NCBI GenBank assembly: GCA_022865305.1
Contig: JALHSP010000016.1
Coordinates: 2,812-66,811 of the forward strand
Reading direction: 5' to 3'
DNA: 64,000 nucleotides
DNA from: Bacteroidales bacterium
GTDB taxonomy: Bacteria; Bacteroidota; Bacteroidia; Bacteroidales; VadinHA17
The notes beneath the pieces are model-generated. The model did no database searches. It was not told the DNA's origin and saw only the letters and a program-made list of their open reading frames with translations. This document shows positions 3,799 through 56,148 of this stretch, piece after piece; positions within the stretch are counted from its first letter, which is position 1; every line of letters begins with the position of its first letter. Made by a program: the position numbers and the translations under genes.

Positions 3799-3877
3799 GC
3801 AGGGCGCCTGTTTAAAATAAGTGTGGAATAAATATGTCTCGCTGCATTTCCTCGTGCTAAAAGGATAGGCACCCTGC
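3799..3877 (-). terminator. Terminator-like stem with a 57-nt loop between fabG and the M48 gene
   Basis: Minus strand GCAGGGTGCCT...AGGCGCCCTGC followed by a run of T. Confidence 0.45.
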
Positions 3878-3902
3878 GAAGTTGTAAATATAATAAAAAA
3901 AT

Positions 3903-4649
3903 TTAAGTTAACATACCTCCGCAAACATGAATTGTTTGTCCGCTTATATAAGACGAAAGTTCTGATGCGAGAAATAAAGCTGTGTTTGCCACATCTACAG
4001 GGGTTCCACCACGTCTGAGCGGGATTTTATCAATCCATGATTTTTTTACATCCTCATGTAATTTTTCAGTCATTTCTGTCATGATAAAGCCGGGAGCAAT
4101 AGCATTGCATCTTATATTTCTTGATCCTACTTCCTTTGCCACACTTTTTGTAAATCCAATAATTCCTGCTTTTGACGCCGAATAATTACTTTGTCCTGCA
4201 TTACCTGATACACCAACAACAGAACTCATATTGATTATTGAACCGCTTTTTTGCTTCAGCATAACCGGAATAGCGGCTTTTGTCAGGTTAAAGACCGATT
4301 TCAGGTTAGTTGCAATTACCGCATCCCATTGCTCCTCGGTCATTCGCATCAGTAATGTATCTCTGGTGATTCCCGCATTGTTTACAAGTACATCAATCTT
4401 TGAAAAATCTTTCACAGTTTCATTTATCAATCTTTGAGAATCTTCAAAGCTGGCAGCATTCGAGACATATCCTTTTACTTTAACACCTGAAGATTCTATT
4501 TCTTTTATAGTACTTTTAAATTCGTCATCATCTGCGATATTCGTTATTGCAATATCTGCACCTTCACGGGCATAAAGCAGAGCTATTGCTTTGCCTATAC
4601 CTCTTGACGCACCAGTAATCAGGGCAGTTTTGCCATTCAATAGTCCCAT
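3903..4649 (-). CDS. fabG: 3-oxoacyl-[acyl-carrier-protein] reductase
   Basis: ITGASRGIG Rossmann motif, NNAGITRD, YSASK catalytic motif, IAPGFI. Confidence 0.93.
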   Translation of the reverse strand: MGLLNGKTALITGASRGIGKAIALLYAREGADIAITNIADDDEFKSTIKEIESSGVKVKGYVSNAASFEDSQRLINETVKDFSKIDVLVNNAGITRDTLLMRMTEEQWDAVIATNLKSVFNLTKAAIPVMLKQKSGSIINMSSVVGVSGNAGQSNYSASKAGIIGFTKSVAKEVGSRNIRCNAIAPGFIMTEMTEKLHEDVKKSWIDKIPLRRGGTPVDVANTALFLASELSSYISGQTIHVCGGMLT

Positions 4650-51595: not shown

Positions 51596-53836
51596 CTAGA
51601 ATGATTGTCCTGCATGGAAAAATAACATCATTCCTTCTCCGGCGAACCCGAAATCCATACCAAGAATTGAATTTTCATTTGAGCCAAAATTAAATCTTGG
51701 ACCGAAACCAGCACTATAATGAAAATCATTAAGACTGAAGTCTGAAGGTTTATTTTGCACCTGTCCAATATCATAAAATGCAACTCCGCTTATAATTTTC
51801 CAGACAGGGAAACGATATTCTGCCTGACCATAAATGCCGGTTTTATCAATAAATCGTGAGACATAGTAACCACGACCTAAAATAGATCCGCCAAAATCCG
51901 GCAGATAGTTAAAAGGGATATCTCCAAATGTCTGGCGGTATAGAATCCTTCCACATAATATATTACGGGGGAATATCGAAATATAACCCCTGGCATCATA
52001 AGTCATTCTTTGAAATTCGTTTTTACTGCCAAGAAATTTTGGCGAAAATTCGGGTGTAACAGATATCATTGCACCTTTCCAGGGGTTATTTTGATGATCG
52101 CGTGAATCGTAAGTAAAAGAAAGTGACAGGAGTGTCTGATTGCCTCCTTTTGCACCGGGGATTGTTGATGGAATTGCACTTTCATTGGTGTCAGTCTTAA
52201 ATTGATCGAATGATACAGAATATGTCAGTTTCCAATATTTGTTCCAAGTAGAAGTAGCAGAAATATTTTCTTTAATACTAATCGAACCATACTCTATACT
52301 TGTGTCTCTCATGGTATTGTTTCCAATTCCGTAAAATAACCTATTCAGGTTGTCAAAATGAAAGGTTGTTTCTATTGCAGTCTTTTTTATCGGGCTTGGC
52401 ATGAAGAATTGAAGGTTGGCTGACCACATATTTCTTGTACTCCATGCAACATCTCCATATAAACTTATTCCGGAATGCAGAATGTCAAAATTGGTATAAT
52501 TGACTCCCATGTTAAAGAGGGAAATCATATCATAAAAACCATAAGGGAAAATCATAGAAGTTTTTGTTCTGAAATAAGGCAAATATTTATTAACCAGCAT
52601 TCCGTTTTCGACGATAACATCGCCATGCAGCATGGTACGGATTATTCTTGTTGAGGTTAATTTGCCTGTATCAATTTTGCCCTCATAAAAGACAAGGTTG
52701 GCACGATATCCTTTTCCGATGAATCCAATTTCTTTTTCTTTCCCGATTTTTTTTGCTCCATAATTTGTAGCACCACGAAGTACCTCAATCCTTGAAACAC
52801 CAATTTCTTCCAGAAGATTCATTTCTTTGAAAATATCATCACCACAATACTCTCCATAAGAAGCAGGGTAATCAGTTCCCACAACAATTGGTACATTTAG
52901 GTCTGATGCTCTTTTAATGGTTTTCTTCATAGACGGTACTCCTTTGGGAGCATAATGATCATAAGCACTTAAAGTAGGTGTGAAGGAAATATTCCGGTCT
53001 TTAAGCTCCAGAAAGAAACTATCAGAAGTTGTTTCAAATCCATGTTCAATCCCATCAACATTTATTCCGGCCATGACCAGAGCTTCCTCTTCTGAGCCAA
53101 CATGTGCCATTACTTTCAATCCCAGTTTATGTGATTCATCCACGATTCCTCTTGCCACATCAAGATTTAAGCGAGGAGCGCCACCTTCCTGATACCACAT
53201 GCGGTCATACACAATTTTAATAAAGTCAATCTTTTGATTTGCCAGAAAATCAATTTCATTCTTAGCTTTGGTTATATCAGTAACCTGAAAAGTGCCATTT
53301 GAGATCAGGTCATGGTGACCGGTATAATATCCTACCGGATGACCATTCGGCGCAGTAAACAGAGGCCCTGGGAAATATAGTTCCGGACCGATTATCTTAC
53401 CCTTTATCAAAGCAATTCTGACTGGTTTGTAACTTTCCAAAGGAGAACCCATATCGATAATAGATGTGACACCATTCATAAGCAGGTGTAACCGATGCTC
53501 CGGGAAAAGAGAAAAACCTTCGCTTGCCAACTTGCCCCAGCTGTGTTTTTCGATTTCGTTTATATATGGCATTGAAGCTCCCATAAAATGAATATGACTG
53601 TCTATGAACCCCGGTAGTATAGCGCAATTTGAAGCGTCAATTACTTCTGCTCCCTTGGGAATTGAGTAATCCTGAGCGTAAATATCCTGAATCAGTCCTT
53701 TATTGATTTCAATAATCCTGGCACCAAAGAATTGATTTCCATCAAATACCTGACCAGCTTTAATGTAGACTGATTGTGTATGTGATTGGATAAATATGAA
53801 AAGTCCTGTTAATATGAAAGAGATTCTGATCTTCAT
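51596..53836 (-). CDS. Secreted metal-dependent amidohydrolase fused to an Omp85/BamA-TamA-type beta-barrel
   Basis: Signal peptide; PGFIDSHIH, DFIKI, MAHVG, GIEHG, VGTD; then ~330-aa barrel with YDSRDHQNNPWKG, RGY, QAEYRFP, GFGPRF, C-terminal GQSF. Confidence 0.85.
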   Translation of the reverse strand: MKIRISFILTGLFIFIQSHTQSVYIKAGQVFDGNQFFGARIIEINKGLIQDIYAQDYSIPKGAEVIDASNCAILPGFIDSHIHFMGASMPYINEIEKHSWGKLASEGFSLFPEHRLHLLMNGVTSIIDMGSPLESYKPVRIALIKGKIIGPELYFPGPLFTAPNGHPVGYYTGHHDLISNGTFQVTDITKAKNEIDFLANQKIDFIKIVYDRMWYQEGGAPRLNLDVARGIVDESHKLGLKVMAHVGSEEEALVMAGINVDGIEHGFETTSDSFFLELKDRNISFTPTLSAYDHYAPKGVPSMKKTIKRASDLNVPIVVGTDYPASYGEYCGDDIFKEMNLLEEIGVSRIEVLRGATNYGAKKIGKEKEIGFIGKGYRANLVFYEGKIDTGKLTSTRIIRTMLHGDVIVENGMLVNKYLPYFRTKTSMIFPYGFYDMISLFNMGVNYTNFDILHSGISLYGDVAWSTRNMWSANLQFFMPSPIKKTAIETTFHFDNLNRLFYGIGNNTMRDTSIEYGSISIKENISATSTWNKYWKLTYSVSFDQFKTDTNESAIPSTIPGAKGGNQTLLSLSFTYDSRDHQNNPWKGAMISVTPEFSPKFLGSKNEFQRMTYDARGYISIFPRNILCGRILYRQTFGDIPFNYLPDFGGSILGRGYYVSRFIDKTGIYGQAEYRFPVWKIISGVAFYDIGQVQNKPSDFSLNDFHYSAGFGPRFNFGSNENSILGMDFGFAGEGMMLFFHAGQSF

Positions 53837-54575: not shown

Positions 54576-55400
54576 TTAGGAACCTACACCTAAAATTCCA
54601 AGAAGAATTAATATCCAAATCGGAGAGTTGCCAAGAATATGTACAAATGCAGAGGCCCAGGTGCTTCTGCATTTTTGTGCTACCCAGGGTGTCAGCAGCA
54701 TACTTGGCAACATACCGATAAATTGCCATTTTAAACATGCATGAAAAATGTAGGCCCAAAATAAACCGTTTATCAACCAGGCCCATCTACCATATTTAAC
54801 CTCTTGACGAGGTAAAATATAACCACGCCACATTAACTCTTCTCCTAACATAGCAGTAATATGCAATGGAACAAAAACAAAAAGGATTCCCCAATTTCCT
54901 TTAAGTTGAACCCCTAAAAATTCTTTAAATGGCAATGATACTTCAAGGAAAGGATTAAAAGGGACAGGAAGATAATCTGGTGGTGCAAAAAAATGAATTC
55001 TGCCAAGCCATCTGCCAATTCCATCAAGACTAAGGTCAGAGATAATGCAGACTATTAATACACCAATAACTAAAAACCATAGTTTACCCGCTATTGGATT
55101 TAGTCGAAAACGATTCTTAAAAGCTTGAAGAGACATTTCATTACCTTCATGCTTATAAAGAATAAGTGAAAAAGGAATTAATAAAATTGTTGTGACCCAT
55201 GTAAATGACATTATGCTGATAATCTGGGGTACCCCTTTACTAATAAGAAGCGGCGCTCCATAAAAAGTACCATAATATAATACCAAACCCGGGATACCAA
55301 ATAAAATTAAAGTAAACCAAACAGAAATAGGTTTAATATTATTTCTGCTGTTCATTTCTTTTCCCCTTCTGGTAATAGACTTTTTGCTTATAAAAAACAA
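54576..55400 (-). CDS. CPBP family intramembrane glutamic protease (Rce1/Abi-like)
   Basis: GEELMWRGY, FWAYIFH, FVHILGN; multi-TM. Confidence 0.9.
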   Translation of the reverse strand: MFFISKKSITRRGKEMNSRNNIKPISVWFTLILFGIPGLVLYYGTFYGAPLLISKGVPQIISIMSFTWVTTILLIPFSLILYKHEGNEMSLQAFKNRFRLNPIAGKLWFLVIGVLIVCIISDLSLDGIGRWLGRIHFFAPPDYLPVPFNPFLEVSLPFKEFLGVQLKGNWGILFVFVPLHITAMLGEELMWRGYILPRQEVKYGRWAWLINGLFWAYIFHACLKWQFIGMLPSMLLTPWVAQKCRSTWASAFVHILGNSPIWILILLGILGVGS

Positions 55401-55437
55401 TTATTGCTGTTGTTGGACGTTGGTGCTCAGGTTAAAC

Positions 55438-56148
55438 TTACCATATTCCTGGTATCAGACGGTAAGGGACTTTTTGTGCATATTCTTTATATCCTTCTAA
55501 TTCATTCCTGAGTGTCTTGTCTTCTAAAGCGGTACGAATTAAGAAAAGAATAGTCAGAATTGCCCCGGGAATTAAAGCCCAAAGTGAACCAAGTATCAAG
55601 GGAGTTGCCAGATTTAGAATTATAAATCCGACATATCCCGGGTGCCGGACATACTTATAAGGTCCGCTTGTAGCAACCTGATGACTACGGTCAAACTGGA
55701 GACGTACAGCAGTTGAGAAAAAATGATTCGATATCATTGACCATGAAAAAAATGCATGCCCCAATAACATAAGTATTAATGCACTAACATTAATCCAATC
55801 AGATATTGCAGGTGACCAGCTAAATCTGTAATCTAAACCAGCAACTACCAATATGCCTAAAGCCGGAAAAATATTCAGGGTCATAATTACTTTATCCCAC
55901 TTTTTCACATTTTCTTTTGATTTACCACGCTCCTCAATCAAATCTGCCGGTAAGATAAAAGCGTTTATAATTATAATTAAGACATATGTGCAAAGATATA
56001 TCCATGCCCAGAGCCATGCAATTTGTCCTGAAGAAACAAACAGCAAAATAGCAAACAGAACTACCTGTAATACAACCTGCATAAATCTCTTCAAAACCTT
56101 TTTCATTTTATCTGGTTTATCGTTGTTTTGTTCATTTTGTTCTTTCAT
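55438..56148 (-). CDS. Isoprenylcysteine carboxyl methyltransferase (ICMT/Ste14/PEMT) family protein
   Basis: NHFFS, GPYKYVRHPGY, RTALEDKTL..EL.GY.EY..KVPYRLIPGIW. Confidence 0.92.
   Translation of the reverse strand: MKEQNEQNNDKPDKMKKVLKRFMQVVLQVVLFAILLFVSSGQIAWLWAWIYLCTYVLIIIINAFILPADLIEERGKSKENVKKWDKVIMTLNIFPALGILVVAGLDYRFSWSPAISDWINVSALILMLLGHAFFSWSMISNHFFSTAVRLQFDRSHQVATSGPYKYVRHPGYVGFIILNLATPLILGSLWALIPGAILTILFLIRTALEDKTLRNELEGYKEYAQKVPYRLIPGIW

Follow-up and report, generated by a model that had tools for sequence, protein, structure and literature searches.

Omp85 proteins are universal machines for building and crossing outer membranes. The 2014 census of the superfamily lists ten subfamilies (PMC4104836); one of them, 'Metallo', joins a PF00149 metallophosphoesterase to an Omp85 barrel, and it is suggested that its barrels are akin to noNterm barrels to which an enzyme domain was added (Heinz & Lithgow 2014; PMC4104836). 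In the patatin fusions PlpD and FplA, the patatin domain of PlpD was placed in the periplasm by experiment and FplA was undetected on the surface (PMC11116518). We describe here a further combination, encoded in a 64,000-nucleotide stretch of DNA from a Bacteroidales bacterium (GenBank assembly GCA_022865305.1, contig JALHSP010000016.1, positions 2,812 to 66,811), the whole of which is called the window below. The gene product, a protein of 746 amino acids (aa), carries an amidohydrolase in front of an Omp85 barrel, a third, unrelated enzyme class on this barrel after patatin and metallophosphoesterase, and here without a POTRA domain. The fusion gene is real, conserved, rare and undescribed in the literature searched; we infer for its enzyme a periplasmic orientation, catalytic activity and an amide-type class of substrate.

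The first-pass annotation of the window, made from the letters and their translations, had read the gene as a signal peptide, a complete amidohydrolase with its metal-centre motifs, a short linker and a barrel with Omp85 hallmarks, without evident POTRA domain. Each motif that it quoted is present in the 746-aa open reading frame (ORF): DSHIH at residues 79–83, IKI with K207, AHV with H245, EHG with H265, GTD with D322, TMLHGDVIV at 400–408, YDSRD at 576–580, PWKG at 585–588, RGY at 655–657, AEYRFP at 672–677, and the terminal F746; the strand, which it left out, is minus. Pfam places Amidohydro_1 at residues 73–388 (E 1.1e-20; 74.7 bits, cut-off 25) and Omp85 (PF01103) at residues 466–712 (E 1.8e-18; 67.6 bits, cut-off 24). 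No POTRA family is matched by the Pfam search of the protein, even at E<=1, and the 16 residues that separate enzyme and barrel in the structural model leave far too little room for such a domain. The AlphaFold2 model, built on an alignment of 57 sequences (predicted local distance difference test, pLDDT, 91.3; predicted template modelling score, pTM, 0.88 over the whole chain), runs through a helix at 3–17, a whole amidohydrolase at 23–410, a helix at 416–422 and exactly 16 long strands at 427–742. By the Pfam matches and this model both domains are whole, as had been claimed. The first helix, of low pLDDT, is the signal-peptide region; similar hydrophobic N-termini are found in homologous members of the family.

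The barrel is of the Omp85 class, in agreement with the first reading. DSSP assigns 16 long strands in the full-length model and in a model of the barrel only (pLDDT 88.7), and the top 50 Foldseek matches of the latter in the PDB comprise nothing but TamA and BamA barrels (E 1e-13 to 3e-10; TMq 0.54–0.72). The GRGY motif lies within the loop 639–665 that joins strands 11 and 12 and corresponds to Omp85 loop 6. Neither R655 nor G656 varies among the relatives, whether fused or unfused, F687 and G691 are at least 91% conserved, and RGY in loop 6 and FYDIG in strand 13 are placed as in BamA and TamA. The barrel thus combines a PF01103 score above cut-off, 16 strands and the loop-6 and strand-13 motifs of the superfamily; the POTRA domains of canonical Omp85 proteins (BamA, TamA, TpsB) are missing, and the BamA equivalog model scores 36.6 bits against a cut-off of 297. 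The best NCBIfam match of the barrel is the POTRA-less 'Omp85_fam' (NF047779; 117.8 bits, E 8e-34), below the 200-bit cut-off of that model. Since five other Omp85-family ORFs are present in the window's genome, among them an 861-aa presumptive BamA, the fusion protein is accessory rather than the essential insertase.

Homologues were searched among 5.8 billion proteins, and 1.84 billion representatives were scanned exhaustively with HMMER. The search returned about 68 clusters with both Pfam domains, ~60 of them full length (737–782 aa), at 96% to 36% identity; the scan returned about a dozen full-length clusters (formed at 50% identity) and, below a clear gap, unfused amidohydrolases (~430 aa) and unfused barrels (~340–400 aa). 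Among species genomes, the full-length gene is carried by Bacteroidales, other Bacteroidota, Cyclobacteriaceae, Spirochaetota and metagenome-assembled genomes (MAGs) of WOR-3, and the junction region is present in many independent metagenomes from sediment, soil, permafrost, groundwater and lakes. Separate contigs, from a soil run (window positions 52209–53437) and a permafrost run (52287–52941), cover the junction without a joint, and DNA composition is flat across it. The fragmented assembly (176 contigs) and the many junctions that the first-pass annotation had seen in the window could suggest that two unrelated genes were joined here by mis-assembly or a recent deletion, with a non-functional product. 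We reject such a chimera, whose probability is practically nil, on account of the same junction and identical connector length in the ~60 homologues down to 36% identity, the independent contigs that are unbroken over the junction, the lack of a step in composition and the confident whole-chain model. The argument already made against a deletion chimera is thereby borne out, and two of the refuting conditions named with the first reading fail to apply, as there are full-length homologues and the barrel is Omp85-class.

The gene is rare. Within the window's genus it was found in 3 of 37 species genomes (100, 73 and 46% identity), in the other families of the same order in 0 of 24 genomes, and in an even sample of the phylum in one genome of 401, namely the window's own. 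Sampled words of the gene were absent from the metatranscriptome runs listed beside the DNA runs. Two Bacteroidales MAGs have the homologous gene in two adjacent tblastn pieces in different frames (loci L003:5798-8037 and L004:6001-8242; L and P numbers are our handles for loci and proteins), an apparent single frameshift that could be a sequencing error or mark a pseudogene. The source databases label the family merely 'amidohydrolase family protein' or 'imidazolonepropionase-like amidohydrolase'. The remark in the first-pass annotation that no amidohydrolase version was known holds for the sources searched: this version is absent from the main text of the 2014 census, PF01979 is absent from its supplementary tables (PMC4104836), and the full-text literature on Omp85 with amidohydrolase, patatin or metallophosphoesterase and on type Vd (reviews) gave no description of the architecture. 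Matches in the Riemerella literature were rejected as unrelated.

The enzyme domain has the amidohydrolase fold, a (beta/alpha)8 barrel with a composite N/C-terminal beta-sandwich (by Foldseek), and the HxH, Lys, two His and Asp of the binuclear type, assigned to strands from the model and from family knowledge. Because all six ligands (H81, H83, K207, H245, H265 and D322) are kept in the window's protein and throughout its clade of 18 members, the default expectation is that the enzyme is an active binuclear amidohydrolase. A profile search of the PDB with the enzyme domain gave cog1228 enzymes at E 2e-41 to 1e-35, and a single-sequence search at E<=1e-20 gave no matches. Foldseek matched the whole model to 3mtw, 2qs8, 9kov and 8ihq (E about 1e-24; ~400–420 aligned columns; TM 0.78–0.86, normalised to these targets), and further to the prolidase 3feq/3n2c and to 8yak, like 8ihq an ochratoxin amidohydrolase. 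The best enzyme match in NCBIfam is the Caulobacter-type Xaa-Pro dipeptidase (XaaProDiPepCaul, NF051886; residues 25–266, partial; E 3.5e-24); its 85.6 bits lie so far below the equivalog cut-off of 500 bits that the specific activity cannot be transferred to the window's protein. Characterised cog1228 members (Cc2672, the Sgx prolidases, the ochratoxin amidohydrolases) are carboxypeptidase- or N-acyl-amino-acid hydrolase-like. Going by PDB titles, and for Cc2672 and the Sgx prolidases by what Xiang et al. (2009/2010) are reported to have found, the nearest characterised enzymes split dipeptides or N-acyl amino acids so as to free the C-terminal amino acid. Lipid-like N-acyl conjugates, too, are substrates of related metallohydrolases (PMC13081902). 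The earlier description 'prolidase/deacylase-like' is accordingly fair for the subfamily, to which NCBIfam, the PDB profile and Foldseek all point, and does not assign the substrate. The example of PlpD makes it attractive to think of an envelope lipid with an amide linkage, or of a lipoamino acid, in the inner leaflet; peptides in the periplasm and xenobiotic amides that enter the cell are candidates of equal standing.

In the tree of the amidohydrolase domain, the fused proteins lie on one side of a fully supported branch and the nearest unfused enzymes, mostly with N-terminal export segments, on the other; the tree of the barrels unites the fused ones in a single group (support 99), apart from the main noNterm-type cluster. 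Both trees and the export segments of the unfused enzymes fit a history in which an exported amidohydrolase was fused once to a noNterm barrel and the product then spread patchily. A protein that consists of a barrel and a signal peptide of its own (P0146, 353 aa) is nested in the fused-barrel clade beside Spirochaetota-type members, and is most simply explained by a secondary loss of the enzyme domain.

Next to the window's clade stands a sister clade of 18 members, 14 of which have K207, H245 and often H83, H265 or D322 replaced; its tree needs at least 2–3 independent losses of metal ligands. In this clade both domains, the length of the connector and all Omp85 motifs are still in place, and since members without ligands retain the full architecture, the amidohydrolase fold has, at least in some proteins, a function other than catalysis. 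In part of the clade the fusion gene is the last of a conserved cluster, in the order LiaF-TM-like protein, 190-aa and 175-aa (LiaF_C-like) proteins, radical-SAM/SPASM-like enzyme, CrtI-family flavoprotein, fusion, which may be a module for lipid or peptide modification and export. At one such locus (L094:6001-9783) a 1260-aa ORF (P0023) holds the CrtI-family flavoprotein, a signal peptide, the amidohydrolase and the Omp85 barrel in one frame, either by a lost stop codon or as a genuine triple fusion; the internal signal-peptide-like segment is still visible.

The reading that we lean towards, and hold a little better than evenly probable, is that an exported, POTRA-less barrel docks an active amidohydrolase on its periplasmic rim for amide hydrolysis at the inner face of the outer membrane. 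The protein would be exported by Sec; its C-terminal 16-strand barrel, of the 'noNterm' type and without POTRA, would then be inserted in the outer membrane and would keep the complete cog1228-group binuclear-metal enzyme in a fixed position against its own periplasmic rim; and the enzyme would cut an amide bond, freeing the C-terminal amino acid from a dipeptide or an N-acyl-amino-acid-like substrate. The site of reaction would be the inner face of the outer membrane, parallel to PlpD and its patatin domain. The first strand of an Omp85 barrel begins at the periplasmic rim; in the window's protein the last strand of the enzyme ends at residue 410 and barrel strand 1 starts at 427. The segment G405–P431 has 26 residues in 57 of 57 aligned family members, despite divergence to 36% identity, and this invariant length speaks for a stiff joint and against both a loose tether and a spacer that is threaded through. 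For domains of ~400 and ~320 residues, a pTM as high as that of the whole-chain model implies, in our view, a confident packing of one domain on the other. Fusion-specific positions (at least 90% conserved in fused barrels and at most 30% in 37 unfused relatives) include G456, P480-S481-P482 and W586 in the periplasmic turns, and account for 5 of 39 residues in these turns vs 2 of 95 in the extracellular loops (Fisher p=0.022). It is the invariant connector, the pTM, the conservation in periplasmic turns and the precedent of PlpD that favour a docked enzyme facing the periplasm. Of the two placements in the first-pass annotation, an outer-membrane-tethered enzyme fits a genuine fusion to an Omp85-class barrel; surface display fares less well, as the invariant connector of 16 residues and the conserved turns favour periplasmic docking.

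Several observations weigh against this reading. Fully extended, 16 residues (about 50 Å) could just span the barrel lumen, so that connector length alone leaves surface exposure possible; the enrichment in turns over loops is modest (p=0.02), and equally many fusion-specific positions lie toward the extracellular strand ends. Most of the cog1228 enzymes with a solved structure form octamers (8 chains per entry), which is awkward for a membrane-anchored monomer. The gene context gives no consistent clue to the substrate, and all members of the family come from uncultured organisms. For the family as a whole, the barrel must do more than anchor an active enzyme, because the sister clade keeps the architecture after the loss of the ligands.

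Two other accounts of a functional fusion protein have to be set beside periplasmic docking. In one, a self-export like that of type V systems, the barrel would be assembled by BAM and hand the amidohydrolase to the surface, tethered or released, for use on external amides or peptides. The order of domains, enzyme N-terminal and barrel C-terminal, is that of the original PlpD/type Vd model; the closest enzyme relatives include amidohydrolases that are secreted to detoxify compounds or release nutrients (ochratoxinase, ADH3; metallo-BSHs, PMC13081902); the neighbours in close relatives are detoxification-like (AraC, nitroreductase, FMN reductase, methyltransferases); and an extended connector could in principle cross the lumen. 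We nevertheless think self-export very unlikely, since POTRA is lacking, the passenger, a (beta/alpha)8 metalloenzyme of 388 residues, is not a vectorially folding beta-helix, and the lumen of Omp85 barrels is filled by loop 6, the lock motifs of which show no variation in this family; the connector, moreover, is partly helical as well as invariant in length, the fusion-specific conservation is in periplasmic turns, and the passenger of PlpD is periplasmic and FplA undetected on the surface (PMC11116518). Nor is the term 'type Vd-like' of the first-pass annotation supported, as the patatin passenger and the intervening POTRA are both absent and the secretion model of PlpD has itself been overturned (PMC11116518).

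In the other account the barrel itself does the work, as an Omp85-type translocase, insertase or lipid-handling unit, and the amidohydrolase fold replaces POTRA as a periplasmic module for binding or processing a ligand. In its favour, Omp85 motifs are invariant in every member of the family while metal ligands were lost independently at least 2–3 times in the sister clade, where the fusion ends the LiaF-like/radical-SAM/CrtI-family gene cluster, with flavoprotein and fusion read through as a single ORF in one contig; the barrel-only protein nested in the fused clade points the same way. The window's clade, however, has all of its catalytic residues and is without that gene cluster, the CrtI-family homologue of the window's genome being unlinked, on another contig; no cargo gene is evident beside the window's gene; and the motifs are equally conserved in noNterm barrels, which have no N-terminal domain at all, so that motif invariance may reflect the stability of the barrel only. 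A working barrel is on this evidence a tentative alternative, unlikely for the window's protein. Its furthest extension, which we regard as quite doubtful, is that these are an undescribed class of Omp85 machines in which an amidohydrolase stands in for POTRA. At the seam of the barrel it would bind an envelope lipid with an amide linkage, a lipoamino acid or a modified peptide, and in catalytic members also deacylate or trim it, coupled to insertion or export at the outer membrane; the dead clade with its radical-SAM/CrtI-family/LiaF-like operon would be an export-only version.

Table 1 Features of the fusion gene, its upstream neighbour and the gene cluster of the sister clade. Positions are those of the window, except for cluster loci, which are given by locus number.
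Feature	Position	Strand	Basis or remark
Whole gene, 746-aa protein of signal peptide, amidohydrolase and Omp85 barrel	51596..53836	-	ORF; stop codon 51596-51598
Sec-type signal peptide, residues 1–22 (MKIRISFILTGLFIFIQSHTQS), without lipobox Cys	53771..53836	-	Read from sequence
Amidohydrolase domain, residues 23–410, cog1228 / Xaa-Pro-dipeptidase-like	52607..53770	-	Pfam PF01979, NCBIfam, PDB profile, Foldseek
Connector, residues 411–426 (NGMLVNKYLPYFRTKT), one short helix 416–422	52559..52606	-	AlphaFold2 model
16-strand Omp85-type beta-barrel, residues 427–746, last residue F746	51599..52558	-	DSSP on two models, Pfam PF01103
Metal ligands H81 and H83 (HxH)	53588..53596	-	Motif and family alignment
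K207, where binuclear amidohydrolases have their bridging (carboxylated) lysine	53216..53218	-	Motif; carboxylation expected from family knowledge
H245, metal ligand	53102..53104	-	Motif and family alignment
H265, metal ligand	53042..53044	-	Motif and family alignment
D322, metal ligand / general base	52871..52873	-	Motif and family alignment
Loop-6 motif GRGY, residues 654–657, Omp85 (V/I)RG(F/Y) hallmark	51866..51877	-	Alignment
Strand-13 motif FYDIG, residues 687–691, Omp85 (F/Y)xDxG hallmark	51764..51778	-	Alignment
DUF6144 gene, 187 aa, Cys-rich, N-terminal 'DRKSF...' RK Tat-like segment	53847..54410	-	10 bp upstream of the fusion start codon
Sister-clade gene cluster, loci	L086:1836-8226; L095:530-6939; L096; L094:5584-9783; L012:4849-7695		

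The DUF6144 gene directly upstream is probably co-transcribed with the fusion in the window's genome. It has no NCBIfam match and was not beside any homologue examined, for which reason it was rejected as a conserved operon partner; among the homologue loci examined, none was found for the window's clade. DUF998 and NmrA-like genes recur beside the fusion in near relatives only, and the neighbours in close relatives comprise genes for AraC regulators and NmrA-like, FMN-reductase, nitroreductase and methyltransferase proteins. A PmbA/TldD-family metallopeptidase gene is convergent to or near the fusion in three distant lineages (L007:6374-7663; L009:4095-5381; L012:10421-11782). In the window, adjacent genes for an Rce1-like CPBP protease and an ICMT/PEMT-family methyltransferase lie at 54576–56148 on the minus strand (Pfam E 2.8e-12 and 3.4e-14), and one relative (L101) has a PEMT-family gene about 4 kb upstream of the fusion. 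A link of the window's gene to the radical-SAM/CrtI-family cluster was considered and rejected, the CrtI-family gene being unlinked and no barrel gene adjoining it. That gene encodes a 498-aa flavoprotein, 48% identical to the fusion-adjacent one, on the 3.2-kb contig C112 (L097:343-1839, minus strand); contig C42 has another copy with an internal deletion (L098, about 3830–4580), and no close homologue of the cluster's radical-SAM enzyme was found in the window's genome.

The family bears on how far the Omp85 scaffold has been reused, a question sharpened by the 2024 finding of a periplasmic PlpD. The catalytic clade and the ligand-losing sister clade offer a natural comparison between a barrel that serves as the anchor of an enzyme and an enzyme fold that serves as the accessory of a barrel, and a rigid, self-inserting unit of barrel and enzyme could serve as a periplasmic or membrane-proximal display scaffold.

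Each half of the protein has described relatives. With the cog1228 enzymes (Cc2672 Lys/Arg carboxypeptidase, 3mtw; Xaa-Pro dipeptidases, 2qs8 and 3feq/3n2c; ADH3/LlADH, 8ihq and 9l6p), the window's enzyme has in common the fold (TM about 0.8), the HxH/K/H/H/D site and the composite beta-sandwich, and many relatives are exported; the solved enzymes, at only ~20–30% identity, are soluble, mostly octameric and without membrane barrel. The nearest relatives of the barrel, at about 25–34% identity, are the noNterm barrels (NF047779; Leptospira LIC12252/12254/12258, PMC11358297), with which it shares the DxRD...G turn, the RG of loop 6, QxEYRFP and the terminal Phe; they lack an N-terminal domain, whereas the fused barrels are a separate clade with the PSP turn and W586. 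As a whole, the protein resembles PlpD and FplA in its Sec signal, in the N-terminal hydrolase fused to a C-terminal 16-strand Omp85 barrel and, likely, in the final topology of a periplasmic enzyme under its barrel (PMC11116518). It differs from them in that their hydrolase is a patatin Ser-Asp lipase and not a binuclear-metal amidohydrolase, in the 16-residue connector where they have a single POTRA between passenger and barrel, and in a barrel nearer to the noNterm type than to PlpD; neither of the type Vd features, a patatin passenger (no match) and a single POTRA, is found in it. The 'Metallo' proteins are alike in having a POTRA-less barrel with an N-terminal metalloenzyme, which is a calcineurin-like phosphoesterase there and a (beta/alpha)8 amidohydrolase here, with no Pfam match to PF00149 in the 746-aa protein. 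Being without patatin, PF00149 and POTRA, the amidohydrolase fusions are members of neither group, and in their working they are kin to both.

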